Of a stretch of DNA of 64,000 nucleotides, positions 8,310 through 58,862 are shown piece after piece. Source of the DNA: a virus (lineage: Duplodnaviria; Heunggongvirae; Uroviricota; Caudoviricetes); IMG/VR virus record IMGVR_UViG_3300032144_000002, positions 12,575 to 76,574 of that record; one strand, 5' to 3'. The number at the start of each line of letters is the position of its first letter. Position 1 is the stretch's first letter. The notes beneath the pieces were generated by a model. The model searched no databases. It was not told where the DNA came from and was given only the letters and a program-made list of their open reading frames with translations. The translations under genes and the position numbers were made by a program.

Positions 8310-8912
8310 ATGAGCTTCTTGAACGCGCGTCTTCTTGAGTGCGTTACTTTCGGTACAAGCGGTGGACCAACATGGTTCACTAGGAAGGTATCGCTTCGGT
8401 CAGGGGTCACGCGCCGCAACGCCAATCGTGCGATGCCGTTGTATAGATATTCTGTCCTGTACAGGAACCTTCTTCCGGAATTCCATCAGGCTGTAATAGA
8501 CGCGTATAATGCTTGCCTCGGCGGTGTGCATTCTTTCAGATTCAAGGACTGGGCTGATTTCGAAGCCGATGAAGAAGTGCTACCAGACATCGGAACTGGC
8601 AGCGCGCAGGAAGTTCAGCTCTACAAAGCCTACACTTTTGGTGGCGAAACTTTGTATCGTAGAATACGGAAGCCGGTGCCCGGTACGGTCACGATGTATG
8701 CCGACGGAGTTGAAATACCGGCGACGGTGGATTACGATACTGGCGTCGTTACGCTCACAGCGACTATCGGCGACGTTCTGTCGTGGAGCGGTGAGTTCGA
8801 TGTTCCAGTCATGTTTGAGGACGACGAGCTGCAGTTCTCTGGCGATGACAAGGGAGTTGGCGGCCTGTTCCTGACAAGCAACGTTGCGCTTTGCGAGGAT
8901 ATCGCAGTATGA
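8310..8912 (+). CDS. Distal tail protein, DUF2460 (GTA ORFg12-like)
   Basis: MSFLNARLLECVTFGTSGGPTWFTRKV matches the conserved N-terminus of TIGR02217/DUF2460 phage proteins; start ATG 8310 two nt after tape measure stop (track ORF 8175 starts spuriously upstream). Confidence 0.7.
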   Translation: MSFLNARLLECVTFGTSGGPTWFTRKVSLRSGVTRRNANRAMPLYRYSVLYRNLLPEFHQAVIDAYNACLGGVHSFRFKDWADFEADEEVLPDIGTGSAQEVQLYKAYTFGGETLYRRIRKPVPGTVTMYADGVEIPATVDYDTGVVTLTATIGDVLSWSGEFDVPVMFEDDELQFSGDDKGVGGLFLTSNVALCEDIAV

Positions 8913-38444: not shown

Positions 38445-38661
38445 CGTCCCGTATCTCGTAGGTGCGCGACTGGAGTTCTACCAGTGGTATGTACCTGAAG
38501 TGACCGTAATGTATACCGTCAGTCCCGCGCGTACTCTGGTAGGCCCACATGCGATCTTTCGGCTGAAGCCAGTATCTCACCTGCTTGTCGATGCATCGTT
38601 CAAGCCACGCCTTGTCGCTTCCTTTGTATCTGCTGTGCAGCACTGACGGTATGTCTTCCAT
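38317..38661 (-). CDS. Hypothetical protein
   Basis: 114 aa, ATGA overlap with upstream NAMPT-like gene stop. Confidence 0.3.
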   Translation of the reverse strand: MEDIPSVLHSRYKGSDKAWLERCIDKQVRYWLQPKDRMWAYQSTRGTDGIHYGHFRYIPLVELQSRTYEIRDVDGAIGIGWTDCLYNPRTRKFTHNLRDHARTRRPNGNIDYRL

Positions 38662-40136
38662 CAGCGCGCCAGATCGGCCTCGGCCCTAGCCCTGATGTCC
38701 GCCAGCGTCTGGCACTTGGCAATGAAGTGACCATCAGCCCAGACCGGCGTCAGAAGTGACGGCTCGCTCATCACATTGCCTCTGCTGTTGATGCCGTCGA
38801 TCAGAGTGAGCTCGCCGGTATCCTTGCGGCGCACAACATGCAACCGCCCGATCGCCGACTTCTTGCCGGAGCCGGTGACAGGATCCTTCTGCATCATGTA
38901 GCCGCAGCCATCACGCATCGTCCATGTCGCCTTGATGGCGAATGAATGTACGTCACGCGTCGTGTACTGGTAGGTGTAGGAGCCGATACCGAACACCACG
39001 TTCGTGGAAGCGAAGCCCATGTACTCCAGCCGTTCACAGATGTCCTGCGCTCTGGCCTCGGTGATCGAGTCGCCATAGATGGCGCCGATGTGCGGATCGA
39101 GCACTTTGTAACCCTGCTCGTTTGTCGTACCACCGAACAGATCCCACAACGTCTGAATGACGCCGTAGTAGGCCGGCGATCCAGCTTCAGCTGTCGGGTC
39201 ACCGCAAAGGATGTCTGCAGGGTCACCGCTGTCTGGTCGGATCACCACCTTGCCATTGCGGGCCATGATCTTGTCCTTGAGCGTCGGCAGGATGTTCGTG
39301 AGAACATGCCAGAGATCCCAGGTATCCGACACGATCGACACGATGCCGACCGGGTACAGATCGATGATGCGCCGGTAGGTTTCGAGCTCATCGTCCTGTC
39401 CGCCGGCGCACATGACCGAGTGCTCCGTTGCAGGCACGCTGCCGCCGATCAAGCCGGTGGCGTCGTAGCTGGCCCGCAGCAGATCGATTGCCGGCAGACA
39501 GTCGGTGCCGGTGAAGAACAGGAGGTGGGCCATGCCTGACAATCCAGCGGCGTGGGCTCCTGGCATCCCGCGGAAGCTGAAGTCATGGCCTTGCCATTGA
39601 ACGCCGGCGTTGCTGCCGGTCGTCTTGATCGCCCACTTGTCGAGGATCTTGCGGTAGCGCGCGGCAGTAGTTGCCGACGTGCATGGCATCCACAGCTCCG
39701 ACGAGATCAGCGTCTCGAAGTAGTTGGTCAGCCAGAAGAACTCCGGCAGCGTGTTCTCGATTGTGAACATGGGCACGCCGAGCGGAACAGCGGTGCCTTC
39801 CGGCAGAGCACATATGCGCAGCGGCAGGTAGCCGAGGTCATGTAGCGCGCCGATGTGGGCCACACCAATGTCGTTCGGACCGAAGTATCCGTCCAGCAAT
39901 TCCTGGTATCGCTGCAGCACGACCATCTTCGGCTTCAGGAAGAACTCCTGTCGCGCCTTCTCCATGAAGTACTCCTGCAGGAAGTGCTGCAGGCCGAAGA
40001 AGGTGACGTGCGTCTGGCCGTTGATGCGCGAGCTGCGCGCGGTGTAGTTCGAGTACACGAACTGCGTGCCGGCCGGGTATTGGCGCCGATGGTCGAGCTT
40101 GTAACCATCGGTCAGGTGAATGAACTCAGGGGACAT
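38661..40136 (-). CDS. Nicotinamide phosphoribosyltransferase-family protein (NadV/NAMPT-like; may be NARP1 'Namat' nicotinamide ADP-ribose transferase)
   Basis: N-terminus MSPEFIHLTDGYKLDHRRQYPAGT and overall 491-aa length match NAMPT family. Confidence 0.8.
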   Translation of the reverse strand: MSPEFIHLTDGYKLDHRRQYPAGTQFVYSNYTARSSRINGQTHVTFFGLQHFLQEYFMEKARQEFFLKPKMVVLQRYQELLDGYFGPNDIGVAHIGALHDLGYLPLRICALPEGTAVPLGVPMFTIENTLPEFFWLTNYFETLISSELWMPCTSATTAARYRKILDKWAIKTTGSNAGVQWQGHDFSFRGMPGAHAAGLSGMAHLLFFTGTDCLPAIDLLRASYDATGLIGGSVPATEHSVMCAGGQDDELETYRRIIDLYPVGIVSIVSDTWDLWHVLTNILPTLKDKIMARNGKVVIRPDSGDPADILCGDPTAEAGSPAYYGVIQTLWDLFGGTTNEQGYKVLDPHIGAIYGDSITEARAQDICERLEYMGFASTNVVFGIGSYTYQYTTRDVHSFAIKATWTMRDGCGYMMQKDPVTGSGKKSAIGRLHVVRRKDTGELTLIDGINSRGNVMSEPSLLTPVWADGHFIAKCQTLADIRARAEADLAR

Positions 40137-43419: not shown

Positions 43420-44724
43420 TCACTTCTTGCTGAAGCGTGAGCCCTTGCGGGACTTCACTTTACCCTTGCGGGCAGACTTGCCTTTCGGCTCTTCGTCTTC
43501 TTCGTCTTCTTCGTCTTCGTCTTCGTCTTCGTCGTCAGACTCGTCATCGTCGCGAGAAGATTCGCCGCGGCGTTTTCCACCATCCTTGCCACCGCCTCGA
43601 CCTGACTTGCGACTCCGCGAGGAAGTTTCTTCGTCATCCTCGTCATCTTCTTCGTCGTCTTCGTCATCATCTTCGTCATCTTCTTCATCGTCCTCATCGT
43701 CTTCTTCGTCTTCTTCGTCACGACGGGACTTGCGCTTTCCTTTGCCGCGCTTGGGCTTTTCGTCTTCGTCTTCGTCTTCATCCTCATCCTCCTCGTCGTC
43801 TTCATCGTCCTCGTCCTCGTCTTCGTCTTCATCCTTGCGCGACTTGGACTTCTTGCCCTTGGCCGGCTTGGCCTTCTTGTCCTTGGACTTCTTGCCCTTG
43901 CGCGGCTTGTCGTCATCGTCCTCGTCCTCGTCTTCTTCCGCCGTGTCATCGAACGGCGTCAGGAGCTCGTCGCGAACTTCTTCGCGCTTCTCCTTGATGG
44001 CGGATACCACTTCCTTGTCGCTGATCTTCTCGTCGATGTCGAACAGGACCACCGGGTAGTCCTCCTCCGAGTCGAACGACAGCTCGACGACCACCGTGTA
44101 ATACGGGCGGTTGAGCTTGTCACTGCACTCCTTCACGAACTTCGACCAGTGCTTGACGCTGGTCGGGGCGAGTTCCAGGAATGCGACGTTGGCGTTCTCG
44201 ATGTCCTCGAGGTCATCCTCATGGATGAGCGCCAGACGCCGGCGCTGCTGGCACGCCTTGGCACGACCACGCCCACTGCCCCACTCGTTCATCGGGCAGC
44301 CGTCGCAGGCATCGGCCTTCGGCGTCTTGACGTTCTCGTGCGGAGCGATCTCGTCTTCCTCGGCGTCGATCGCGAAGCACACCGGGATGTTCGGCTTGTC
44401 CTCGTCGAACTTCTTGCCGTAGTACGTGTTCAGGTACGCGAAGTCGATGATCACGGCCTTGATGGTCTTGCCGAGGTTCTCGCCATCGAACGTGAAGCGG
44501 CGGGCTTTTGTCGAGAGCCGGTTGCCCAGCCCTCCGCCACCGCCGCCCTTCTCGCGAGCGCGCTCATCGCTGGCTTCCTTGGCCAGATCCTTTTCCCAGT
44601 CAAAGCTCTTACCGCCCTTTTCTTTCTTGCCCTTGACCTTCTCTTTCGCCATCTTATCCTCTCTTGCGGATTGACACAGACACCTTCTTGAAAATCTCGA
44701 TACCCGGCACAGCTTCGCCGTCAT
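43420..44724 (-). CDS. Polyampholyte protein 2: Cys-containing N-terminal domain (CDGCPMNEWG...KACQQRRRLAL) then about 170 aa poly-Asp/Glu with Lys/Arg-rich spacers
   Basis: Composition and architecture parallel ORF 27542-28939; antisense ORFs are Ser-rich artefacts. Confidence 0.55.
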   Translation of the reverse strand: MTAKLCRVSRFSRRCLCQSAREDKMAKEKVKGKKEKGGKSFDWEKDLAKEASDERAREKGGGGGGLGNRLSTKARRFTFDGENLGKTIKAVIIDFAYLNTYYGKKFDEDKPNIPVCFAIDAEEDEIAPHENVKTPKADACDGCPMNEWGSGRGRAKACQQRRRLALIHEDDLEDIENANVAFLELAPTSVKHWSKFVKECSDKLNRPYYTVVVELSFDSEEDYPVVLFDIDEKISDKEVVSAIKEKREEVRDELLTPFDDTAEEDEDEDDDDKPRKGKKSKDKKAKPAKGKKSKSRKDEDEDEDEDDEDDEEDEDEDEDEDEKPKRGKGKRKSRRDEEDEEDDEDDEEDDEDDDEDDEEDDEDDEETSSRSRKSGRGGGKDGGKRRGESSRDDDESDDEDEDEDEEDEEDEEPKGKSARKGKVKSRKGSRFSKK

Positions 44725-45056: not shown

Positions 45057-45275
45057 TCAGCAACACCCCGCGTCTCGCATGATCCACACCTTTGGCTCAG
45101 GCGAGCCTCTTAACATGTAGGACTCTGGTTTCTCGTTGGGCGCAATGGAGCAGTCCTTCACTCCGTTGGCCAATTCTCGCGCAGCCGCTTCATCCTTGGC
45201 CACGACTACCACACCTCCTTCGGAATGGTAATTGTCAGTGGCCCGCTTGATGCGCGGCCAGATGAACACCATCAT
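45057..45275 (-). CDS. Hypothetical protein
   Basis: 72 aa. Confidence 0.25.
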   Translation of the reverse strand: MMVFIWPRIKRATDNYHSEGGVVVVAKDEAAARELANGVKDCSIAPNEKPESYMLRGSPEPKVWIMRDAGCC

Positions 45276-45544
45276 GATCTCTGCTCCAGTATCAGCCCGA
45301 GCAGGAACTGCTTGTTCAATCTCGGCAGCTTCCTTTCCTGCTCGACGATGGTCTGCATGAGCACGTCATTGGTCACGTCCAGCTGCGACCATCGCTCGAC
45401 CACGATGAACTGAACGCCGGCGTAGACAAGCCCACGGATGTGGTCGAAGGTGACGTACCGACTTTCGGCTGTGTCGTACAGCCGACGGTTCGGGTACTTC
45501 TTGATGACGCGTACCGCGCCAGTGCCGCTAGTGGCAGTGTTCAC
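45272..45544 (-). CDS. PhaR/PhaF-like DNA-binding domain protein (PHB_acc_N-like)
   Basis: IKKYPNRRLYDTAESRYVTFDHIRGLV...MQTIVEQE closely follows the conserved N-terminal DNA-binding domain of polyhydroxyalkanoate regulators. Confidence 0.5.
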   Translation of the reverse strand: MNTATSGTGAVRVIKKYPNRRLYDTAESRYVTFDHIRGLVYAGVQFIVVERWSQLDVTNDVLMQTIVEQERKLPRLNKQFLLGLILEQRS

Positions 45545-48558: not shown

Positions 48559-48791
48559 TTGGCCACCTTCTTGGCGCGGCCGATGGTGCGCTTGGCGATC
48601 TTGCTGGTTTCGAGCACCTCGACCATCCTGCAGTCGTAGCGCTTGAGGTTGGCACGGCGAGTGAGCACGGCCGGAACTCCGCGGCGTCTCCACATGCCCA
48701 TGCTGGCGCGACAGTTGGTGCATGCATCCAACTTTGAGTTGGGTGACAGCGCACGGTCGCACTCGGGGATAACACAGAACTTCGTAGTCAT
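48555..48791 (-). CDS. Zinc-finger protein
   Basis: CVIPECD...CTNC. Confidence 0.35.
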   Translation of the reverse strand: MTTKFCVIPECDRALSPNSKLDACTNCRASMGMWRRRGVPAVLTRRANLKRYDCRMVEVLETSKIAKRTIGRAKKVAK

Positions 48792-48852
48792 GATGATTCC
48801 TTGTCGATGTTTATATGAATGGAGCTATTGCTCGTTGCTCAACTGGCTATCG

Positions 48853-49554
48853 TCAGGCGTCAACTTCCTCCATGTTAGACTGCGTTGAGGTGAACCTTCC
48901 GGTGTGGGTCCCTTCAGCAACTGAGCGGCTGTTCAGTACGCGCATGATCTCCTGATCGAGCGCGGCACCACTGAGCACCGTGACCTGAATGGGCTGTGCC
49001 CTACGCTGCTCGGCCCGGCTGGCGTACTGCCGGCCCGGCTGCTGGCGGGCCACTACTGCCGGCGGGGCAGCGGCAGGCCCCTTATAAGGTGTGCCCCGGC
49101 CTACGCTGGCGGGCTGTGGGCGGCCTTGCGCCCCGGGGCCTGCCTGCCCTAGCGGCCCCGCTTGCCGGCCCGCCGTGGGGCCTTGCTGTGCGCCCCTACG
49201 CTGGCCGCCGGGGCCTGCCTTTGGGGCCGGCTGGCGCGGCGGGGCAAACCCGGGCCGCATGCACTGGCCGCCAGCGTATACAGGCACCGGCTTCAGGCCC
49301 GGCTCCAGCGCATACACGTATGCCCTGACCGGCGCGTTGTCTTCATCGTACTCTTTCTGAAGCCTGTCAGCTTCAATGCAGTGCGCGATCAGATCGCCGT
49401 TGATCGAGTATGAACGCTGAAGCCGTTCAAACAGAATGATGCACCGGCTGCCACGGTACATCTCAACCTCCACGTTCGAGTCATTGACTACCTTGTTCTC
49501 GTCGCTCTTGGTCCTGCAGACGTGTGCCCACACCGAAAAGATCACGTATTTCAT
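48853..49554 (-). CDS. Hypothetical protein; only the N-terminal about 95 aa look protein-like, the remainder is Pro/Gly/Gln-rich read-through of GC island R2 and may be noncoding
   Basis: Central region coincides with GC-rich repeat island containing TATAAGGTGTG motif. Confidence 0.3.
   Translation of the reverse strand: MKYVIFSVWAHVCRTKSDENKVVNDSNVEVEMYRGSRCIILFERLQRSYSINGDLIAHCIEADRLQKEYDEDNAPVRAYVYALEPGLKPVPVYAGGQCMRPGFAPPRQPAPKAGPGGQRRGAQQGPTAGRQAGPLGQAGPGAQGRPQPASVGRGTPYKGPAAAPPAVVARQQPGRQYASRAEQRRAQPIQVTVLSGAALDQEIMRVLNSRSVAEGTHTGRFTSTQSNMEEVDA
48960..49280. repeat. GC-rich repeat island R2
   Basis: GGCCGGCTGGCGCGGC (as in R1), CTTATAAGGTGTGC (as in R3 and reverse in R4). Confidence 0.4.
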
Positions 49555-49766
49555 TATTCTTCGACCCCTAACTTCTTGGCCAATGACAGCAGCGCTGTCC
49601 GGTTCTTCGCGTCAAGGAACCTTCTGATTGATGCCGCAGCATCGGCCCCTTCGCTGACAAGGATACCTTCGATCTCCACCACGCCCATCTCACGCGGTGC
49701 CACCGTGTCCAACGGTGGAGGTTTGGGCGGTCGGGCGTTGTAGTCAACGTAATCTCGGACGCTCAT
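49554..49766 (-). CDS. Hypothetical protein (start MSVRDYVDY)
   Basis: Track ORF 49554-49820. Confidence 0.3.
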   Translation of the reverse strand: MSVRDYVDYNARPPKPPPLDTVAPREMGVVEIEGILVSEGADAAASIRRFLDAKNRTALLSLAKKLGVEE

Positions 49767-50062
49767 GTAAGTGCCTCCTTTGGCAGCTTGAGTTCGCGCG
49801 CGATGCCCGCATGCCAGCACGGAGGCTTGCCCGGATGCTTCGCGTCTTCAAGGTACGGCCCGTCCTTGTGCAGCACCATGCCGAGGACCTTCCGTAGCCA
49901 CATGATCAGGTCACCGCGCGCCCTGAAGGCGTTACCGTCCTGCAGCCACTCTTGATCGTGGCTTCGAACTTCAAGGCAGTGCCATCCCTTGGCGTTGATG
50001 CCCGTACGAAACGATGAGAAAGTGATCTCGCGGGCCTTGACTGGCTTCTTGCTGGTCTTCAT
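49763..50062 (-). CDS. Hypothetical protein (start MKTSKKPVKAR)
   Basis: Track ORF 49763-50137. Confidence 0.3.
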   Translation of the reverse strand: MKTSKKPVKAREITFSSFRTGINAKGWHCLEVRSHDQEWLQDGNAFRARGDLIMWLRKVLGMVLHKDGPYLEDAKHPGKPPCWHAGIARELKLPKEALT

Positions 50063-50352
50063 GCGGCGCTCCTTGCTGGCTTCTTCCGATGCGAAGACTG
50101 GTAGTGGTAGTCGAACCTGTACCATGCATCCATGCACATGGCATAGAGTTCGCCACCAGTCAGGCCGAACCGCGCGCCGACCACCTCGGCTACACGCATG
50201 GCCTCATCTTCAGCGATCCTACCATGCGCGGCGTCAGAGAACTCACCGCCGTCAAAGTGACGATCGCAAGCGTGGGCCTCGCTGAGACCGTCTTGTATCG
50301 GGGTCATCACCCGACTGAAGGCGCGCACTGCTACCATGTTAACGCTTTGCAT
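50059..50352 (-). CDS. Hypothetical protein (start MQSVNMV)
   Basis: Track ORF 50059-50502. Confidence 0.3.
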   Translation of the reverse strand: MQSVNMVAVRAFSRVMTPIQDGLSEAHACDRHFDGGEFSDAAHGRIAEDEAMRVAEVVGARFGLTGGELYAMCMDAWYRFDYHYQSSHRKKPARSAA

Positions 50353-50623
50353 GGCGGGTCTCCTCGGCGCGGATCTGGAAGTTATCGATGATATCCTCGA
50401 TACCATCATCACCCTCGAACTCGCCGGCCTCGAAGTCGATGCCAGCTTCATCAGCCACGAATGAGATGATATCGAGGCAGCACTGTACGAGCGCCTTGGC
50501 ATGGGTCAGCTCATCGTCCGACAGCGGCTGGCTGTTACTAGCCGCCATGTTCTCGAGCTTCTCTTGGCAGAGCCCAAGATCGCGCAGCGTGTTGTAGAAC
50601 AGATTCGAGTTGTCAGTAACCAT
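50339..50623 (-). CDS. Hypothetical acidic protein with conserved 5' leader element
   Basis: Start MVTDNSNLFYN preceded by CCATCAACTGCCAAGGAGCACTCAAT. Confidence 0.35.
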   Translation of the reverse strand: MVTDNSNLFYNTLRDLGLCQEKLENMAASNSQPLSDDELTHAKALVQCCLDIISFVADEAGIDFEAGEFEGDDGIEDIIDNFQIRAEETRHAKR

Positions 50624-50657
50624 ATTGAGTGCTCCTTGGCAGTTGATGGTATTGATG

Positions 50658-50852
50658 TCAGTGTTGCGGTTCAGACAGCTTGATTGCGCGCTCGTACTCC
50701 GCCAGCCATGCCTGCTCATTCGCAAGCAGCTTTTGAAGTTGCCGGATTTGGGATTCCGTGCTGCGCTTTTGATTGAGCAGCGACGAGAGCGAGAAACATC
50801 GTACCAGTGTACGCACCCTTCGATCGGATGCCGTGCCGTTCGTCCTAGACAT
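50658..50852 (-). CDS. Hypothetical small protein (start MSRTNGT, GGAAGGAG RBS)
   Basis: Track ORF 50658-50912. Confidence 0.3.
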   Translation of the reverse strand: MSRTNGTASDRRVRTLVRCFSLSSLLNQKRSTESQIRQLQKLLANEQAWLAEYERAIKLSEPQH

Positions 50853-50886
50853 GATGGTCTCCTTCCTGGAGTTGCGACGTTGATGT

Positions 50887-51213
50887 TCAGTAACAGGACT
50901 CAAGCAAGTCAAACGCGATCAGCTTGTGCTGATCATCGTTGCCAGAGCCGGCAGGCAGATCCTGCATAGTCTGGCCATGGACGGTGTAGCCGCTGTCGGC
51001 TGCACCGCCAAGAAAGTACGCCAAGAGCTCCATACCCTTGCGCTTGCTGGTGTTGTGGAAGTGAGACAGGTACGCTTCGAGTTCCTTCTCGGCGCGCTCC
51101 ATGTCTTGCGGCTTGAAGCCCGCGAAGTCTTCTTCCTTGAACCGTCCGCCGCTGTTGGTGGCGAACGCTCCGTCAAAGAACTTCACGAGCAGTGGGTAGG
51201 TATCTTTCATCAT
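50887..51213 (-). CDS. Hypothetical protein (start MMKDTYPLL)
   Basis: Track ORF 50887-51354. Confidence 0.3.
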   Translation of the reverse strand: MMKDTYPLLVKFFDGAFATNSGGRFKEEDFAGFKPQDMERAEKELEAYLSHFHNTSKRKGMELLAYFLGGAADSGYTVHGQTMQDLPAGSGNDDQHKLIAFDLLESCY

Positions 51214-51223
51214 GGCTGATACC

Positions 51224-51391
51224 TCAGTGCAGACGCGACGACCAGAACGCCGTGTACTTGGCGATATAGTCGTCGAAGAGCGCCTGAATTTCCTTGGCGC
51301 TGGTGGACGAGATGAGCGCTGCCTTGTAGGCATCGTTCGCCTGCTTGACGTCAACCGCTGTGACGCGGTTCGGATCGTTCTCCCTGATCAT
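51224..51391 (-). CDS. Small hypothetical protein (55 aa, MIRENDPNRVTAVDVKQANDAYKAALISS...), below ORF-track length cutoff
   Basis: ATGA overlap with upstream stop; GGAGG RBS. Confidence 0.3.
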   Translation of the reverse strand: MIRENDPNRVTAVDVKQANDAYKAALISSTSAKEIQALFDDYIAKYTAFWSSRLH

Positions 51392-51606
51392 GTGCGCCTC
51401 CTTGAGTCCAGTTCGGCTGTCAGCAGTTGCTTGCTGTTGAAGATTGAATCAGCGGTTTCGCGCCACTGAGTTCGCAGCAGTTTGGTCTCAGCAATGAGTG
51501 ACCACGCCTTGCAGTGCGTGATCAACATTTCACAGTGCGTGATCATCACCCGTAGCGTCTTCACCGTGAGCTTCTTGCGATTGCGCGTTGCGATTTCAAT
51601 GTTCAT
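51388..51606 (-). CDS. Small hypothetical protein (start MNIEIATRNRKK)
   Basis: Contains internal 13-bp direct DNA repeat CAGTGCGTGATCA x2. Confidence 0.3.
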   Translation of the reverse strand: MNIEIATRNRKKLTVKTLRVMITHCEMLITHCKAWSLIAETKLLRTQWRETADSIFNSKQLLTAELDSRRRT

Positions 51607-52523
51607 GCGGCCTCCTTGCTGGCGGCTTCGACTTCTTCCCACGCACTGCGGTACTCATCGATGACCTGCTTGCGGCTGTAGCACTGCCCGATGCGCAGCA
51701 CCACCTCCTTCGCCTTCACACGCTCGCGCAGCGTGTACGGAAGACCCGTACCGAGCGCGCCACCGAAGCCCGAGCTTGCAGTCCACGGACCGCAGCCCAT
51801 CGCAGCGAACCCGGCTGAACGCATGAACCCGACACTGACCATTGCGCACAGCCTGTCAAGCACGACCGGATCATTGGTCTTCTTGACGCACCACGCAGAC
51901 CACAAACGGGGCGGAGCCTTCTGACCCCACTGGAACGGATTGCTCGTGCTGTCGATGACCCAGATTTCCATGATGCGGCCTGCACGAGCCAAGCTGTCAA
52001 CGAGCAGAGTGCAAAGCGCCGCACGCCACATGGCCATGTCATTGGTGACGTTGGCGTTAGCCGTCACGTCGAACGCAAGCGTGATGCGCTTGGTATTCGG
52101 CGCTTGCCGTTCAACGCGCACCGGCCTCGCCCATGCCGTATCAACCTGACCGTTCCAAACGCGGGTCATGTCGATTGAATCGCCGTGGTCATCGTGCCGA
52201 GTCTTGCGCCGGCGCACAGTGGCGTGCGTCGGGAAGATCGGCAGCTCAAGGTCGATACCCTTCAGCATCTTCAGAACCTGCTCACGCAGCTCAGGCCAGC
52301 CGTTCTGAACGCGGCGCTGCACTCCGTGGAAGCCGTCGCTGCATCCCCACCAGCGGTCACCGCTCATGCTGGTGATGCTGTTCATGAAGTGCGGCTTCTT
52401 CTCCTGTATCTGCTTCAGATCAGGCAGGAATTCTTCATACGAATCCCACTCATACGAGACGCCAGCGAGCTCGCCGTTCTTGCCGGTCATCTCAACGATG
52501 CGAACGTTGTCAGTCTTGTTCAT
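51603..52523 (-). CDS. Putative partner of AAA+ ATPase (CobT/VWA-like?)
   Basis: Start MNKTDNVRIVEM overlapping ATPase stop; ITLAFDVTANANV weakly resembles VWA MIDAS region. Confidence 0.3.
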   Translation of the reverse strand: MNKTDNVRIVEMTGKNGELAGVSYEWDSYEEFLPDLKQIQEKKPHFMNSITSMSGDRWWGCSDGFHGVQRRVQNGWPELREQVLKMLKGIDLELPIFPTHATVRRRKTRHDDHGDSIDMTRVWNGQVDTAWARPVRVERQAPNTKRITLAFDVTANANVTNDMAMWRAALCTLLVDSLARAGRIMEIWVIDSTSNPFQWGQKAPPRLWSAWCVKKTNDPVVLDRLCAMVSVGFMRSAGFAAMGCGPWTASSGFGGALGTGLPYTLRERVKAKEVVLRIGQCYSRKQVIDEYRSAWEEVEAASKEAA

Positions 52524-53704
52524 CAGATCGTCACGAGCGTGCGCTCGGCCTCCGTCCAACCGGTGAAGTATGCCTTGGCCCACTGCTCAGGACCCCACTT
52601 GTGCATGGAGGTCATGGTGGCAAGGTGCTCGATTACTCGCGTTGACATGATGCGGCGCAAGGCGTTCTTGCGGATGTTGGCGCGAATCTTCCATGCCCAC
52701 TCGCACAGCTCGGTTGAAGCAATGCTGGCTTCAACGTCGCGGCTGTAGTCCATGGTAATCATGCCAATCTTGAAGCGGTCAAGCGTGGCAGCATCGAGCT
52801 GATTGCGGCCGACATACATTGCGTCGGCGCCGCTGCCGTAGGTATTGGCAGCAGCGGCCAGCACAAAGTTCGGCGACTTCTTCACGACCGGATTCTTGTA
52901 CCGCTGCTCTGCGGTATAGCTCTTGTTCGCGATGGCCTTATTGATGTAGGTGAACAGGTTAGGGTCACCGGCATCAATCTCGTCAAGGAGCATCACGCCG
53001 CCCTTCTCGTAGCGGCGCATGAAAGGCGATTCAACATGCTCGAACGCACCGTTCTTGCCGACGGGCAGAAGCTTGCCGTTGAACACCGATTCGCTCATGC
53101 CCTCGCTGCACGACTGATCGCTGAACTCCATGTTCAGCGCTTCAGCCAGCTTCTCGCACAAGTAGGTCTTGCCGCAACCTGCAGGGCCTACCAGCATGAT
53201 TGGCACGCGCGCCGTGGCCAGTTCAAGCATCATCTTGAACTCGGGCGGCAGCACGCCCTTGACGGTGCGCGTCTTGCCGGCTTCCTTGATGACAAACGGC
53301 GCAACCTTTTCGGCGGCGGTGGCCAGTGCCTTCTTGGCCGCTGCCTCGAAGCCGGCAGTGGCCTGATTGGCCGCTTTGACCACGAACTCTTCGGCCCGTT
53401 TCTCAACATCACCAACCGTGGCCATCGCGACGCTGGTGGTGATTTCAAGGAATCGCTTTTCAGAATCAGTGGTCGGCTTGATGCCACCCGGCTGCTGCAG
53501 CAGCACGATGGCCTCATACGCTGCTTGAGCGCGTTGCGGCTGTGCCTTGATGGCCTCGACCAGTATGGTGTCGGCGTCAGCGCGCTTCTTGGCTGCCTCG
53601 ACGCGGTTGCGAACAGCCAGCCAGTCCGCCATGATGCGGACCTGAGCCATGTGCAAGCGACCGACCGGGCAGGATTCTACGTTGTTAGGAAACTTGAAAG
53701 CCAT
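52523..53704 (-). CDS. AAA+ ATPase, AAA_5 (MoxR/CbbQ/CobS-like) family
   Basis: Walker A IMLVGPAGCGKTYL, Walker B VMLLDEIDAG; N-terminal coiled-coil extension. Confidence 0.7.
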   Translation of the reverse strand: MAFKFPNNVESCPVGRLHMAQVRIMADWLAVRNRVEAAKKRADADTILVEAIKAQPQRAQAAYEAIVLLQQPGGIKPTTDSEKRFLEITTSVAMATVGDVEKRAEEFVVKAANQATAGFEAAAKKALATAAEKVAPFVIKEAGKTRTVKGVLPPEFKMMLELATARVPIMLVGPAGCGKTYLCEKLAEALNMEFSDQSCSEGMSESVFNGKLLPVGKNGAFEHVESPFMRRYEKGGVMLLDEIDAGDPNLFTYINKAIANKSYTAEQRYKNPVVKKSPNFVLAAAANTYGSGADAMYVGRNQLDAATLDRFKIGMITMDYSRDVEASIASTELCEWAWKIRANIRKNALRRIMSTRVIEHLATMTSMHKWGPEQWAKAYFTGWTEAERTLVTI

Positions 53705-53738
53705 GTTAAGTGCTCCTTAGCAGTTGATGGCGTGGATG

Positions 53739-53942
53739 TTACTGTTGATTGTAATCAGGATAAACCCAGCCGCCGACCTCTGGGTCGTAGCGACCACCGC
53801 GCTCCTTGCGGTAGATGTACTCGCCGAGTTCATCGGCTTCAGCGTCGAGCTCAGCTGCCTTCTCGATGTCGCCACGAGCGCGGGCCTCCGCCTCGTCTTC
53901 CTGCAGCTTGATCCAGCGTTGCTTCAGTTCGGCGATTGTCAT
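53739..53942 (-). CDS. Hypothetical small acidic protein
   Basis: 67 aa. Confidence 0.3.
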   Translation of the reverse strand: MTIAELKQRWIKLQEDEAEARARGDIEKAAELDAEADELGEYIYRKERGGRYDPEVGGWVYPDYNQQ

Positions 53943-54193
53943 GCGTTCACCCAGTTGATTACAGCGCCGTATGTTTCGTTGGTGCTGAAGTGCACCTGCG
54001 TCTTGTGCACGCTCTCAGGCACGGCCTGTACGATGAATTCCTTCGCGGCGATCACTTCGCCAAACTGCACGTCGTGTTCTTTGCACGTAGCGGTGAGGAT
54101 GTTACCGACGTATGAAACGCGCCAGCCGATGCCGTCGTACTTCATGCCTTTGAGGTGCTTGCGCAAAAGCTTATTCAGTTCGTTGATTTCCAT
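53939..54193 (-). CDS. Hypothetical protein (start MEINELNK) with conserved 5' leader element
   Basis: Track ORF 53939-54412 starts at an upstream TTG. Confidence 0.35.
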   Translation of the reverse strand: MEINELNKLLRKHLKGMKYDGIGWRVSYVGNILTATCKEHDVQFGEVIAAKEFIVQAVPESVHKTQVHFSTNETYGAVINWVNA

Positions 54194-54227
54194 GTTGAGT
54201 CTCCTTTGAGAGTTGATGGCGTAGATG

Positions 54228-54434
54228 CTACAGGTCACCAAGACCGAGCTTGTCGGCTGCTGCGCACAGCGCGGCATCGACGCCCTCTTCGAGGTTGAAG
54301 CTGTCGAGTTCAACAGCGCCCTCATTAACCAGCTCAATGGCCAGGACGATCTCTTCGTCCGAAACCAGCTCTTGCTCGCCGTCCTTGGCAAACATTGCGC
54401 GCAGAGATTCAAGTACCTGATGCTTAGTTACCAT
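54228..54434 (-). CDS. Hypothetical small acidic protein with conserved 5' leader element
   Basis: 68 aa, pI acidic. Confidence 0.35.
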   Translation of the reverse strand: MVTKHQVLESLRAMFAKDGEQELVSDEEIVLAIELVNEGAVELDSFNLEEGVDAALCAAADKLGLGDL

Positions 54435-54467
54435 GTTGAGTCTCCTTTGAGAGTTGATGGCATTGAT

Positions 54468-54545
54468 TGAGCGTTCCGTTCAACAGGCTGAATTTCAACC
54501 CGCTGAAAGGAACGCTCGGTGCTTTGTTCTTTCACCGAGCGTTAC
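54468..54545 (-). promoter_or_regulatory. Leader RNA element with two mutually exclusive hairpins (terminator/antiterminator-like) upstream of gene 54228-54434
   Basis: On the mRNA: AACGCUCGGUG-loop-CACCGAGCGUU (11-bp stem, then CCUUUC) competes with GAGCGUUCC-31 nt-GGAACGCUC (9-bp stem) through shared GAGCGUU. Confidence 0.4.
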
Positions 54546-54779
54546 CGTTGCTTCCGTACCAAACACAAACTAGTTACCCGTACTGTCCTGCATTGCGCTG
54601 CTGCGATGAGAGGGCCTTGCGACCGGAGCCACGCATAAGCGTGTAGACAACCGGCAAGCGCCACACTGGCAATGCACCGTCGTTGATGCTGAGTAGGCAT
54701 TTGGATTTTCAAAGCGGGCCGCTGTACTTGCGCCGCTGACCAAGATGCTTCATGGGCCTCTTGGTGCCTGACCACTCGC

Positions 54780-55200
54780 TTATACCGCTCGGAGCGGACC
54801 GGCCGGTGCGCCGGAGTACCGTGCTAGGGTTAGGGTTCAGGTGGCTGGCGTTGCCGCTCAACCGTTTCTAGCAACCGGCGCATAACGCCTGACGCTGCCC
54901 CTGTACCGCCCTTCGGCTGGCGCTTGCCCGTTGCGCCGGTACGTTTGGGGCCTAGGCCCCGGGCCACCCGCTAGCTAGGCGGGCACCTTATTATAAGGTG
55001 TGCAACAGGGGTTGTTGCAACGGTACTGGCGCACAAAATGGGCACAACAAAAACCGTTGCAAAACAAGCAGTTGCGGACGCCACTACCGGCTGGGAGCGC
55101 CCCTAGGCGGCCTCCCGGCCCGTTTGGGGCGGTTTTGGGCCTGCCAGCCGGTGCCAGCGCAACCGCCTAGGCACCGGGCCGCCAGCTCATCTCCCAGGTA
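54780..55200. repeat. GC-rich repeat island R3 within a 760-nt noncoding region (54435-55200)
   Basis: CCTTATTATAAGGTGTGC; inverted repeat TTGCAACGGT...ACCGTTGCAA; several CCTAGG; GGCTGGCG elements; possible TTGCAA-N19-TATAAT promoter reading toward lower coordinates. Confidence 0.45.
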
Positions 55201-55617
55201 TCAGCCCTCAGGCTGTACCCTCATACCCTCTTGCGCTGTTTCAGGCGCACCGAGACCCATGCTGACTCCAGCCTGTTGTTTCAGCAGATGCTTGGCTCTG
55301 ATCTGTGACGTCTTGCTCATGCACCGCACCAGCTCATCTCTGGCGAGGTTCTCCATCTTGAGCCCATGCGCTGAACAGAACGCGGCAAGTGTTACCAGCG
55401 TGCCGCCGACTTCTTGCGGCAACTCACCGACCGGTCGGTTGTAGACGTACTCGACAAGCTGCAGCACCCGCTCTTTGGACACGCCAGCCGCCTGCATCAG
55501 TTCGAGCGTTTCTTCGAGCACACGATCTGCGCGCTCTTCCTTGCTCTCCACCACTACCTTGCCAAAGCACAGCAGCGCCCATCCGGTGGCGGTGCGTTGG
55601 AACTCTGCTATTCTCAT
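55201..55617 (-). CDS. Second MazG-like / all-alpha NTP pyrophosphohydrolase-family protein
   Basis: EETLELMQAAGVSKERVLQLVEYV...ELPQEVGG resembles MazG/HisE-fold NTP-PPase motif (EExxE ... metal-binding acidic helix). Confidence 0.4.
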   Translation of the reverse strand: MRIAEFQRTATGWALLCFGKVVVESKEERADRVLEETLELMQAAGVSKERVLQLVEYVYNRPVGELPQEVGGTLVTLAAFCSAHGLKMENLARDELVRCMSKTSQIRAKHLLKQQAGVSMGLGAPETAQEGMRVQPEG

Positions 55618-55955
55618 GCGAACTCCTTCACCATGAGCAGCAAGGCGCAGTACGCTTCGAGCTCGGTCTCACCGCTGGCCCTGTATCTCGTCGGCGTCAC
55701 GTCATCACCGGATGAGTCTTCGGCGCATACTTCGATGAGGTCATTAGTTGCCCAATGCGTCGCATGAACGTTGAACCCCGCTTTCTTGAGCGCGGCTCGA
55801 ACGTGAGAGCACGTCTGCAGCGGCCATGCTTTGACAGCCTGCGCTGAGTAGGTGAAGCCGAGGCGAGCTTGGATGATCTGCGATACTCGTTCATTGTCAA
55901 TGTCGGCCATGTAGTCCTCTGCTGAATACGGTTTCTTGTCAAGTACCTGAAACAC
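55614..55955 (-). CDS. Hypothetical protein
   Basis: 113 aa. Confidence 0.3.
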   Translation of the reverse strand: MFQVLDKKPYSAEDYMADIDNERVSQIIQARLGFTYSAQAVKAWPLQTCSHVRAALKKAGFNVHATHWATNDLIEVCAEDSSGDDVTPTRYRASGETELEAYCALLLMVKEFA

Positions 55956-55965
55956 TGTCGTTACC

Positions 55966-56337
55966 CTAGCGGATGCCGTGCTCTTTCTCCCTCTTTGGCA
56001 CCAACGGCTGGTTGAACACTCGTTCGAGCCATCCGAAGAAACCCGCGAACAGCTTTGGTGAGACGTCGAAGATCGCGGCCAGTAGATTTCCTACGGGCAT
56101 GATAGTGACAATAGCGCGACCGATCAACGAGCCAACTGTATCAGTGGGGTTGTACAAGTTGTTCTCGCCGTTGGCCGCGCGTGCCTCGCCTTCCGCACGC
56201 TTCTTGGTGTCGATCTGGTAGTTCGCATGTGTCCTCATCAGATAGCCGATGGCGCAGGTCACCAGCGGAATCCAGTAGAGCACCAGCGCGATCCACGGCG
56301 TGGTAGCGGCGTTCTTGATCCAGTCAATCATGTTCAA
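55966..56337 (-). CDS. Two-TM membrane protein (possible partner of second SPFH protein)
   Basis: Hydrophobic helices WIALVLYWIPLVTCAIGYLM and GRAIVTIMPVGNLLAAIF. Confidence 0.35.
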   Translation of the reverse strand: MNMIDWIKNAATTPWIALVLYWIPLVTCAIGYLMRTHANYQIDTKKRAEGEARAANGENNLYNPTDTVGSLIGRAIVTIMPVGNLLAAIFDVSPKLFAGFFGWLERVFNQPLVPKREKEHGIR

Positions 56338-56343
56338 TCTCCT

Positions 56344-56922
56344 TTACAGTCTCTTGGTATCACCATCGGCCGAACGAGTGTCCATGCGACTGTTGTAGTC
56401 GCTGTACATCCCCAGTCCGGTGTTCAGAAAGCGGTACGTTCGACAGACAGCAAAGTCTGTCACGTTGAATGAGTAGAGCTGCAGTCCGTAGTTATCCAGC
56501 TCATGCGCCAGACTCTCGGCCACGAACTTTTCGAGCTCAGTTGCCGTGATCTGCGACAGTGATCTTTCACGCATGAACGATGCGATGGCGCCTTGGGCTT
56601 TCTGCGTGATCGTGTCGTGCGCGTTGTGAAGCTTCGTGTAGAGCTTCAGTATGTCGTGCACCTCATACCGCATTGAGCTGGCGATGCTGATTGGCTTGCC
56701 ATCGGCAGTCGTGATGATCTGACCTTCCACAAAGTGAGCCCTCAGTCTGGTTGGCTGCACGAATGTCTGGTGGATCAACGGTATGCGCAAGTGAACACCC
56801 GGTTGCAGAAGCGTGACGTGCTTACCAAGCTTCACACGTAGCCCTTGCTCCCATGGGGATATGGTGATCCACCATTGGAACAGCTCTTTCAAGCCTTCCT
56901 TGATCTGTTGGACGATGTTCAC
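56344..56922 (-). CDS. Second SPFH/band-7-like domain protein
   Basis: WITISPWEQGLRVKLGKHVTLLQPGVHLRIPLIHQTFV...YEVHDILKLY follows the N-terminal beta-rich pattern of SPFH domains. Confidence 0.5.
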   Translation of the reverse strand: MNIVQQIKEGLKELFQWWITISPWEQGLRVKLGKHVTLLQPGVHLRIPLIHQTFVQPTRLRAHFVEGQIITTADGKPISIASSMRYEVHDILKLYTKLHNAHDTITQKAQGAIASFMRERSLSQITATELEKFVAESLAHELDNYGLQLYSFNVTDFAVCRTYRFLNTGLGMYSDYNSRMDTRSADGDTKRL

Positions 56923-57470
56923 TCGGCGCTCCTGTGCTCGGCGGTCGGCAATTCAACAGTCAGGTCGATGCCCATGCTCTGTAGCTGATCATGCAGCGTG
57001 GCCAGCTTCTCTCGCGCCGAGTCACGCGACACACGAGCCTGCGCCAGCTCCACGTCGGAGTGTTCAAGTCTGGTCTGTGTCTGTGACAACCTCTGGTTCA
57101 GCACGGCGATGAACTCGTTGGCCGTGGCCAGCTGATGCTGCAGCTCCTTGGCGTCCTCGCTCATCGTCTCCTTGCGCGCCATGAACCCGAGGTCCACGAA
57201 CACGTCGCCGAACTTGAAGGCCAGCGTATATACAAGCCGGCCATGCGGCTTCATCTCGGTCGGTTCCACGACCTTGATGGCGAACTCCTTCAGCAACTCG
57301 TCGACCACTGTCTGTGGCGCAGCGGCTTCTTCGACCCACGGGATGCAGATGCAATCGAAGTCACGCGCTAGTGATCCATGCACCGTCAGCGCATACCCGT
57401 GCTTTCGAACGATCTCGGCCATGTCGGCGTAGACGCACGCATAGATCGGTGCGTTGTTTGCTGGCTTCAT
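56919..57470 (-). CDS. Minimal nucleotidyltransferase (pol-beta/MNT-like fold) with C-terminal coiled coil
   Basis: HGSLARDFDCICIPW contains GS...D-x-D nucleotidyltransferase signature. Confidence 0.45.
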   Translation of the reverse strand: MKPANNAPIYACVYADMAEIVRKHGYALTVHGSLARDFDCICIPWVEEAAAPQTVVDELLKEFAIKVVEPTEMKPHGRLVYTLAFKFGDVFVDLGFMARKETMSEDAKELQHQLATANEFIAVLNQRLSQTQTRLEHSDVELAQARVSRDSAREKLATLHDQLQSMGIDLTVELPTAEHRSAE

Positions 57471-57643: not shown

Positions 57644-58242
57644 AGCCCCGGTCTCCCTGTCTTGCAGAGCCAGTGCGTCGGCTCCCTGTTGCCTTCAAGT
57701 TGAATCTGAGTGAACGAGTTCTCGTAATACCACCAGCCGACGTCTGCCGGGTTGCGGTCATCCATCTGCATGGCTTCTTCAAGCGTGCGATACCACGCGC
57801 TCCATGTAACCCACACGGTAGCCATGTTTCTACCGACGATCACCTCATCGCCATCCTTCGGCGCAGTCTCAATCGGCTTCCATCGCATCTCAGGCGTCTG
57901 GTAGAGCCCTTCTGGCTGAAACGAGAATTCCATGATCTCGGCCTGCTTGATCTTGTCACCGTCATAGATCGACGGCATGAAACCAGGATTGCCAAGTATG
58001 GCGCACAGATCATCTCTGCTGACGCCTTCTTGAAAGGTCACCACGATTCTTCCGTTGGCGTTGCTCGTGACGAATCCGAGCGGCGGCTTCGTGTGATCAT
58101 GCTGCATGAGGATTGGCACGTTCGGGTGATCGCCGATTCTACGGAATCCCTGCATCGGCGCCGTCCTTCCACACTCGCCGCAGACAGTGACTTGGATGTT
58201 TCGCCGTCCGCACTTGCAGGTCCAGTTAGAAAGCAGGCTCAT
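57640..58242 (-). CDS. DUF551-domain protein with N-terminal zinc ribbon
   Basis: WTCKCGRRNIQVTVCGECG; WKPIETAPKDGDEVIVGRNMATVWVTWSAWY matches DUF551 tryptophan-rich motif. Confidence 0.45.
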   Translation of the reverse strand: MSLLSNWTCKCGRRNIQVTVCGECGRTAPMQGFRRIGDHPNVPILMQHDHTKPPLGFVTSNANGRIVVTFQEGVSRDDLCAILGNPGFMPSIYDGDKIKQAEIMEFSFQPEGLYQTPEMRWKPIETAPKDGDEVIVGRNMATVWVTWSAWYRTLEEAMQMDDRNPADVGWWYYENSFTQIQLEGNREPTHWLCKTGRPGL

Positions 58243-58862
58243 CGTGACCTCAGCGCGGCGCGCACTTCCATCCACAGACCACCGAGCACGTTCCTTCCGT
58301 TGCGCTTCTCGCCCCAACCCCAGAAGTCGTCACGCCACGAGTTCTCGATCAACACTCGCTCACCGGTCTCCATCAGCTTGCGAGTGACGTACTCATGTTG
58401 ATCGGCCTTGGCCATGATCATCTGCCCCATGATCCCGACCTTCACTCGGTCCCATTCCTTGCGCCGCTGTTCCTTGTAGTGCTGCGCCAGTTGGAACGCG
58501 TCGTGCGCTGAGCGGGCGACAGTGATCAGGTCGCGTATCGTCTGCGACGTCCCTCGGAACTTCTCGGCATGGTAAGCATGCTCGACAGTCGGATAGAGTT
58601 GGCCGTGCCACTCCAATGCGAACGCGCTGAAGTTGGACAGGACATAGAACTCCTGCTCATAGAAGAACACGGCGTTGTCAGTATCGAGTCCGTGGCATTC
58701 AGGGCTCTGTGCCGCCTTGCCGATACCGATGCCGTGCATGTCGAAGATGCCGGTGTCCTTGTCAACGGCATGCTCGTAACCGGCCTCATGCAACTTCGCG
58801 CCGACTTCATAGTAGGCTTGTGGTGACAGTTCCATCACCGCATAGGTATGTGTCGTTCTCAT
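58239..58862 (-). CDS. NADAR (YbiA/DUF1768) domain protein
   Basis: AVFFYEQEFYVLSNFSAFALEWHGQLYPTVEHAYHAEKF...WGWG are the NADAR family signatures. Confidence 0.7.
   Translation of the reverse strand: MRTTHTYAVMELSPQAYYEVGAKLHEAGYEHAVDKDTGIFDMHGIGIGKAAQSPECHGLDTDNAVFFYEQEFYVLSNFSAFALEWHGQLYPTVEHAYHAEKFRGTSQTIRDLITVARSAHDAFQLAQHYKEQRRKEWDRVKVGIMGQMIMAKADQHEYVTRKLMETGERVLIENSWRDDFWGWGEKRNGRNVLGGLWMEVRAALRSR

Follow-up and report, generated by a model that had tools for sequence, protein, structure and literature searches.

The 64,000-nt stretch of DNA analyzed here (the window; positions 12,575 to 76,574 of IMG/VR record IMGVR_UViG_3300032144_000002, so that some 12 kb of its 76.5-kb source contig fall outside the window) belongs to an uncultivated siphovirus-like tailed phage. 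Its plus strand encodes a tape-measure protein and gene transfer agent (GTA)-like tail proteins at 1-18 kb, and this structural region is followed by a long minus-strand block of early and replication genes, among them a DUF3854/DUF5906 primase, NADAR and SPFH proteins, a CobS/MoxR-like AAA+ ATPase (hereafter CobS), a DUF7192 protein, a ligase, NAMPT, a family A DNA polymerase and a SNF2 helicase. The subject of this work is a leader of about 35 nt that occupies the start regions of several early or replication genes in this block. When the minus strand was read across 50200-54700, four near-identical leaders were seen to abut the ATG codons at 54434, 54193, 53704 and 50623. A previous reading made from the sequence alone (the sequence-only reading) had placed four conserved leaders before genes 50339-50623, 52523-53704, 53939-54193 and 54228-54434, and all four are present, on that strand, where it put them.

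Copy 1 (54435..54469, minus strand, as are all copies) heads the first gene after a long non-coding region, with no cistron ahead of it. The gene behind it (54228..54434) encodes a 68-aa ORFan protein without a Pfam match and without a homologue among the leader-preceded (motif-led) genes of related phages. Copy 1 alone carries an ATG within its box (CAATGCC), which opens an upstream open reading frame of 11 codons (MPSTLKGDSTW; 54429-54464, minus strand) ending at a TAA that overlaps the main start (ATGGTAA); this small reading frame is probably incidental. Copy 2 (54194..54227) is the entire 34-nt spacer between a TAG stop codon and an 84-aa gene (53939..54193) whose orthologues in three related contigs (L122, L123 and L126, described below) are likewise motif-led. 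Copy 3 (53705..53738) fills the 34-nt spacer between a TAA stop codon and the 393-aa CobS gene (52523..53704; PF07728, phrog_249), and copy 4 (50624..50657) the 34-nt spacer between a TGA stop codon and a 94-aa gene (50339..50623). A diverged copy 5 (ACATCAACGTCGCAACTCCAGGAAGGAGACCATC; 50853..50886), again a 34-nt spacer, precedes a 64-aa gene (50658-50852), and a possible sixth, strongly diverged copy (CATTCATATAAACATCGACAAGGAATCATC; 48792..48830) before a 78-aa gene with its ATG at 48791 was recognized by eye only, the covariance model described below having missed it. Because exactly 34 nt separate stop codon and ATG before the genes starting at 54193, 53704, 50852 and 50623, the leader element makes up the whole intercistronic spacer at these four genes.

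The neighboring copies 1 and 2 are identical across 31 nt (GCCATCAACTCTCAAAGGAGACTCAACATGG), in agreement with the sequence-only reading, which had counted about 31. Its consensus needed a small correction in the spacing: two of the copies have the Shine-Dalgarno sequence (SD) displaced by a single base, and what stays constant is how far CCATCAACT lies from the ATG. The corrected consensus is CATCNAYRN-CCATCAACT-(CTCA or GCY)-AAGGAG-(ACTCAAC or CACTYAAY)-ATGG. Copies 1 and 2 read CCATCAACT-CTCA-AAGGAG-ACTCAAC-ATGG and copies 3 and 4 read CCATCAACT-GCY-AAGGAG-CACTYAAY-ATGG, with the SD one base further upstream in the latter pair, and despite this shift CCATCAACT always stands 26 nt from the ATG. 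A second, degenerate box lies upstream, giving the order stop codon, CATCNAYR, then CCATCAACT, and the window copies hold a pair of CATCNAY-type repeats at a spacing of 10 bp, with GGAGA after them.

The recurrence of the leader is not a matter of chance. The window has five exact occurrences of CCATCAACT, four of these at leaders, and 22 matches with one mismatch, where 12.8 would be expected. A position-weight scan scored the four leaders at 29-31 bits and everything else at 14 or less. The covariance model, run without filters on both strands (128 kb), gave 39.6, 39.0, 36.2 and 33.6 bits for copies 1 to 4 and 13.4 bits for the next match; the diverged copy 5 reached only 11.9 bits. Each copy contains the SD and ends exactly at the start codon, and all copies lie on the minus strand at 48.8-54.5 kb, with none in the structural module at 1-18 kb. 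The sequence-only reading named copies at many non-start positions, or a lack of conservation in related phages, as grounds for refuting it; no copy away from a gene start was found in the 128 kb of window strands or in 300 kb of related loci, and the motif is conserved in relatives. An exact-pattern scan of IMG/VR with CCATCAACT-N3/4-AAGGAG returned only single chance matches.

Relatives were reached through homologues of CobS, a family with roughly 2,500 members; those at 51-66% identity led to twelve syntenic metagenomic contigs (L122, L123, L124, L126, L129, L208, L286, L288 and L372-L375), in part by an alignment-based locus search in IMG/VR. Metagenome scans added few close relatives and a GTDB scan added none. 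One further contig, L121, is an identical 8.7-kb sequence from another sample and is uninformative on micro-variation. Among deposited GenBank phages, blastn found no nucleotide-level relative of the window, and the best tblastn match to CobS (46% identity over 64% of the protein) was in Acinetobacter phages. Each of the twelve contigs has its own version of the leader, flush with the ATG and always present before CobS, in 2-10 copies per contig; in most relatives it also stands before 1-9 further genes. The versions read CATCACTACTYCAAGGAGTACTAAC-ATG in L122, CCATCAMGTACTCNAAGGAGACNATC-ATGG in L123, CCATCACCTCTCAWAGGAGACGATC-ATGG in L126, TTTCATGACTCAACCCTTAACTGGAGAYYATC-ATG in L124, CATAACACTCNNAGGAGTCTATC-ATG in L286, CAAACTTCCACAAAGGAACTAAC-ATG in L288, CATCAACAGTT..AAGGAACTCTATC-ATG in L208, AAATCTCANNGGAGAATTTT-ATG in L374 (at least 10 copies) and AACTCTCATCGGAGACNAYC-ATG in L375. 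The position of the leader is thus kept while its sequence drifts among genomes, and the copies within one genome drift together. Judging from these comparisons, the element is old, since all 13 of 13 genomes keep it before CobS although the identity of their CobS proteins is no more than 51-66%.

The copies not attached to CobS stand mostly before small ORFan genes: when the proteins of motif-led genes are clustered, 29 of the 35 clusters are singletons, and an 83-aa gene is motif-led in four genomes. The 94-aa gene behind copy 4 has been relocated in the window, because it lies on the other side of CobS from its position in three relatives. In the window (50339-50623) it is 3 kb downstream of CobS, past the CobS/DUF7192 pair, while in L126 (5257-5541), L123 (9011-9310) and L122 (7929-8189) it is upstream; the L126 gene also carries the leader. 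Recent leader duplication, one of the explanations offered by the sequence-only reading, is partly right, in that it fits the concerted evolution within genomes and the one relocated gene; the element is nevertheless old, being present at all 13 CobS starts.

We generated predicted RNA secondary structures with RNAfold for the region from -40 to +6 around each start. One two-helix architecture was obtained for most copies, from differing sequences in six genomes. In the outer helix, (G)CCAU of the box pairs with AUGG(C) at the start. Nested within it is an inner hairpin of 4-5 bp, in which an anti-SD stretch (of CUCU or UGCU type) pairs with the SD as its 3' arm. Predicted energies range from -5 to -10 kcal/mol, with z-scores of about -2 in most copies. 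Copy 1 is predicted to form a 6-bp outer helix (UGCCAU/AUGGUA) and a UCUC/GAGA hairpin (-7.9 kcal/mol, z = -2.2), and copy 3 a GCCAU/AUGGC outer helix and a UGCU/AGCA hairpin (-9.1 kcal/mol, z = -2.2). The fold of copy 2 has a predicted energy of -5.4 kcal/mol, copy 4 combines an ACCAU/AUGGU outer helix with a 3-bp inner stem (-4.7 kcal/mol, z = -0.2), and copy 5 has a CUCC/GGAG hairpin. As controls we took, from the loci that carry the copies, 128 start regions without the motif. The median pairing probability of the start codon was 0.81 for 34 motif copies and 0.36 for the controls (p = 2.5e-5), and 71% of the copies, compared with 16% of the controls, were predicted to hold the SD in the 3' arm of a hairpin of 4 bp or more (p = 1e-7). 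The inner SD hairpin is a more general feature than the outer helix.

As read from the aligned copies, both predicted helices show compensatory changes, within and between genomes, and these reach the second codon. The inner hairpin is built from at least nine distinct complementary stems (UCUC/GAGA, UGCU/AGCA, CUCC/GGAG, ACUC/GAGU, UUCC/GGAA, AGUUC/GAACU, UACUC/GAGUA, UGUC/GACA and AUCUC/GAGAU). The stem changes even within genomes, as between window copies 1 and 2 and copies 3 and 4, or between the CobS copy of L286 and its other three. In the outer helix, the base preceding CAU tracks coding position +4. CCAU/AUGG is the commonest combination, and UCAU/AUGA occurs at 10992 and 11798 in L122 and at 5122 in L286, GCAU/AUGC at 2651 and ACAU/AUGU at 2842 in L208. 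The CobS gene of L123 has a GTG start, where the pairing is GCCAU/GUGGC. Position +5 is also often paired, by G-C in all four close CobS copies and by A-U in window copy 4.

The reading that we favor, with a probability of roughly 0.55, is that the leader would be a clade-specific, reusable translation-initiation cassette acting on the mRNA, either as a structured start region or as an operator. A shared translational operator was also the first of the explanations offered by the sequence-only reading, and it is the best supported of them: the element is flush with the ATG, holds the SD and varies in a way that preserves pairing, including at +4 and +5. From these observations we infer an effect on translation. 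The cassette would supply an SD and a start context to genes that are not translationally coupled through overlap with the upstream gene. By default its own fold would partly mask the ribosome-binding site, and initiation would be damped or conditional. The mask would most likely be opened or closed in one of two ways. It could be opened by a ribosome terminating on an upstream cistron 0-40 nt away, which is plausible where the stop codon abuts the outer helix, as in L123 and L126 (TAA-CCAU), and less convincing in the window. Alternatively, a factor reading the invariant single-stranded CAUCAAC and ACUYAAY could open or close it, in which case the leader would be the shared operator of a small regulon always including CobS. 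A sequence-specific factor of this kind would account for the invariant unpaired bases and for the concerted evolution of the copies. Recurring between many small genes, the cassette would, in addition, offer homology for moving or swapping them, and the association with ORFans together with the relocated gene suggests that the cassette is also a recombination junction.

A number of points weigh against this reading. For window copies 4 and 5 the predicted folds are no better than those of shuffled sequences, the helices are only 3-6 bp long with modest predicted stability, and L288, L374 and L375 have a weak outer helix or none. Comparative statistics speak for pairing, but with limits. In an alignment of 25 copies derived from a seed alignment and covariance model (plain MAFFT misaligned the boxes), paired cells amounted to 79% compared with 73% in shuffles (reached by 1 of 500 shuffles) and covariation to 0.244 compared with 0.166 (1 of 500), with slid-partner controls at 28-52%; these values are to be read knowing that a model-based alignment was fitted to the structure and that, by the covariation tool's own caveat, related sequences can exceed shuffles without any structure. 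The shared descent of copies within a genome leaves few independent compensatory events, and about two thirds of the outer-helix extension pairs are expected by chance because C is common before CAU, as is G at +4. As for the opener, 8 nt separate the stop codon from CCAU in the window, about as far as a terminating ribosome can reach, and coupling cannot be the general opener because no cistron precedes the first copy of any genome. Regarding a factor, a Pfam search of 30 neighboring ORFs (open reading frames) detected no RNA-binding, sigma or polymerase domain, and RNAduplex found no antisense RNA in the window, where the leader matches only the opposite strands of the copies themselves.

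Within genomes, variation is 0.17 in unpaired columns and 0.23 in paired ones. The unpaired columns thus vary no more than the paired, and structure alone is insufficient to explain the conservation of the leader. What lies beyond structure is either sequence-specific reading of CAUCAAC/ACUYAAY or homogenization by recombination. The second of these leads to an alternative in which the leader is a passive portable junction, that is, a good ribosome-binding site copied along with small genes and homogenized by recombination or gene conversion, its pairing having no regulatory role. The concerted evolution of copies within genomes, the 31 identical nt of the adjacent copies 1 and 2, the prevalence of ORFans among the motif-led genes (one of them relocated), the equal conservation of unpaired and paired positions and the low stability all agree with it. 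We nevertheless think it unlikely, since the arms of the hairpin change between copies and yet remain complementary, and the 5' strand matches each gene's second codon. Moreover, the control start regions lack these pairing features, and CCAU/AUGG at the CobS leader persists in a distant clade in which the cassette has not spread.

That distant clade encodes a CsrA-family RNA-binding protein beside the ligase gene (L289 11451-11690; L130 ~10748-10972; L128 ~10435-10611; L291 ~8641-8802), and at its CobS start a plain CCAU-AGGAG..-AUGG hairpin carries the SD in its loop; the cassette has not spread to other genes there. CsrA itself was considered as the reader of the leader and seems a doubtful one: tblastn found no CsrA gene in the window, phage CsrA being confined to L128, L130, L289 and L291. 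GGA is partly inside the stem in most leader copies, while CsrA sites present GGA in a hairpin loop. Extended complementarity to the 3' end of 16S rRNA was likewise rejected, by inspection only, as AAGGAGnnGAUC fits L123 and L126 and not the window.

The sequence-only reading had also named a promoter element, and this part of it found no support. Under this explanation the box would be a phage-specific promoter or DNA operator, read by a phage-directed polymerase or regulator, and each gene would have its own transcript. Repeated motifs of 20-35 bp in the early and middle regions of phages are often promoters, their sequence varies among related phages as it does among the T7, T3 and SP6 promoters, and the direct repeat within the leader has a period of one helical turn; the roughly 12 kb of source contig outside the window could also be counted on this side. 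Even so, we consider it quite improbable. A scan of 49500-56500 for sigma-70-like hexamers found three sites, none at a copy, and the window has no polymerase-sized ORF and no sigma domain that we could find, its only ORFs above 700 aa being a tail protein and the primase. A promoter would not be expected to keep so strict a spacing from the ATG or to covary with coding bases, and a transcript starting past the box would begin at or inside the SD. A likeness to T7/T3 promoters around GGAGA was dismissed on inspection only, the registers being mismatched.

Still less probable, in our view, is an RNA processing or stability element or an RNA thermometer, in which the SD-masking hairpin would serve as an endonuclease site, protect mRNA ends or melt with heat. 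SD-masking stems of 4-5 bp are used by the ROSE and fourU thermometers, and T4 RegB cleaves within GGAG of early mRNAs. Positions 49000-57000, however, gave no Rfam match, thermometers included, at E <= 1, and neither a nuclease gene nearby nor a sequence feature specific to cleavage was recognized.

The translation-initiation cassette may also be extended into a more specific proposal, which we offer only tentatively and hold to be doubtful: the leader would be the operator of a clade-specific post-transcriptional regulon, in which a phage or host factor reads CAUCAAC and ACUYAAY, CobS and a changing set of accessory genes switch together, and the cassette is a socket for new ORFans. Such a regulon cassette would possibly work together with a structured RNA of about 520 nt that heads the operon, described next.

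Upstream of copy 1, a conserved non-coding region (54470..55080, minus strand) contains GTTGCAAC palindromes, a TATAAT box and a covarying structured RNA of about 520 nt which ends just 5' of the copy. The surrounding 770-nt stretch (54435-55200) is about 77% identical in nucleotide sequence to L122, L123 and L126, compared with only 40-65% for the neighboring proteins. The structured RNA spans 54462-54984 on the minus strand, downstream of the palindromes and TATAAT box. Its first domain (54808-54984) has 51 predicted pairs and is 96% paired (slid-partner controls 25-41%), and 16 pairs are changed on both sides, compared with 5.8 in shuffles, none of 500 shuffles being as high. In the second part (54462-54775), compensatory changes affect 37 of the 84 predicted pairs. 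An 11-bp hairpin without a U tract (54525-54565, minus strand; AACGCTCGGTG..CACCGAGCGTT) belongs to the 3' end of this structured leader, and its arms covary with L123, L126 and L122 (ATGCCCGATAG..CTGTCGGGTGT). The RNA has no Rfam match and is neither a tRNA nor a tmRNA. With the model built here, the RNA turned up only in the window, L122, L123 and L126, and one IMG/VR scan returned only L126's own contig. We would like to note that this RNA may be more novel than the leader finding. At its head, at about 54985-55075 on the minus strand, two to three GTTGCAAC palindromes and the TATAAT box are conserved in five genomes and look like the operator and promoter of the leader-carrying operon; the sigma-70 scan missed the TATAAT site because its spacing is unusual.

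Several observations concern the wider gene context. The minus strand of the window encodes a full NAMPT (38661-40136), a 90-aa protein with a PhaR N-terminal DNA-binding domain (45272-45544), an SPFH/Band 7 protein (56344-56922) and a NADAR protein (58239-58862), and these accessory genes (PhaR-domain, SPFH, NADAR, NAMPT) occur alongside the CobS-like/DUF7192 pair. A conserved 434-aa protein and its relatives contain a poly-Asp/Glu acidic tract, encoded by runs of GAC, GAG and GAA codons, at about 43680-43920 (inside gene 43420-44724) and about 27835 in the window, at 13205-13493 in L126 and at 16031-16094 in L124. The adjacent L288 genes at 1884 and 2143 share a different near-identical leader of about 45 nt (CACACCTACTCACTGGCAACTGCTAGATCTRCCAGCYAAGGAGCCAGAKC), which looks like a recent tandem duplication unrelated to the motif.

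For the biology of these phages, the distribution of the leader suggests that small accessory genes may enter an existing expression program if they bring a standard leader with them. In practice the leader is of modest use, as an aid to start-codon annotation and a signature for this uncultivated phage group.

Among known systems, the T4 RegA regulon, the T4 gp43 and gp32 operators and the MS2/PP7 coat-protein hairpin, which holds the replicase start, are cases in which an RNA element over the SD or AUG controls initiation. RegA is a single repressor for many early mRNAs, with AU-rich, unstructured sites, and the MS2 operator is a single site. The leader resembles these translational operators in being a small RNA element overlapping the SD and AUG; no repressor of the leader was identified among the ORFs scanned in the window. 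In the ROSE and fourU thermometers and the early-transcript hairpins of T4 e, soc and 49, a few bases paired to the SD or AUG gate initiation. Unlike these, the leader is multi-copy and intercistronic, has no Rfam match and shows no visible internal late promoter. An integron attC site was also considered and rejected on inspection, since CATCAAC misfits RYYYAAC and has no GTTRRRY partner; no integrase was found in the neighboring ORFs scanned.

A close analogue is the PeSL, a mobile regulatory cassette of T4-type phages, which consists of a strong sigma-70 early promoter and a terminator stem-loop and has been shown experimentally to be a recombination junction (Arbiol et al. 2010, PMC2839356). 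Both PeSL and the leader are small repeated cassettes among non-essential ORFans in a plastic region, and in both differences in gene order coincide with the cassettes. In contrast to PeSL, no copy of the leader has a promoter match or a terminator-like site, its hairpins lack a U tract, and what is conserved is the ribosome-binding site.

Of the phenomena described so far, the leader comes nearest to the start-associated sequence (SAS) of cluster K mycobacteriophages, with its extended form (ESAS): a 13-bp, AGGAG-containing repeat located 3-7 bp before the ATG of non-structural genes (PMC3203893). Its function was suspected to be translational (PMC3203893) and was still untested in 2025 (PMC12699233). 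SAS and the leader are alike in being short and in one orientation, in containing AGGAG, in standing almost always at ATG starts and in preceding non-structural genes of unrelated families; the outer symmetric bases of SAS (GGG...CCC) could pair, as the outer bases of the leader do in prediction. The two differ in host and sequence, the SAS consensus GGGATAGGAGCCC having no match in the window with up to two mismatches. The leader is also longer (about 35 nt compared with 13), flush with the ATG, present in 4-10 copies compared with 11-19 for SAS and, unlike SAS, genome-specific in sequence among relatives. Compensatory changes supporting RNA pairing are found in the leader, while Pope et al. 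2011 (PMC3203893) found none in the ESAS repeats. Start-associated phage repeats have been known since 2011, and the clade described here is a second, independent case, in which the comparative signal points to pairing in the mRNA and makes the translational hypothesis directly testable.

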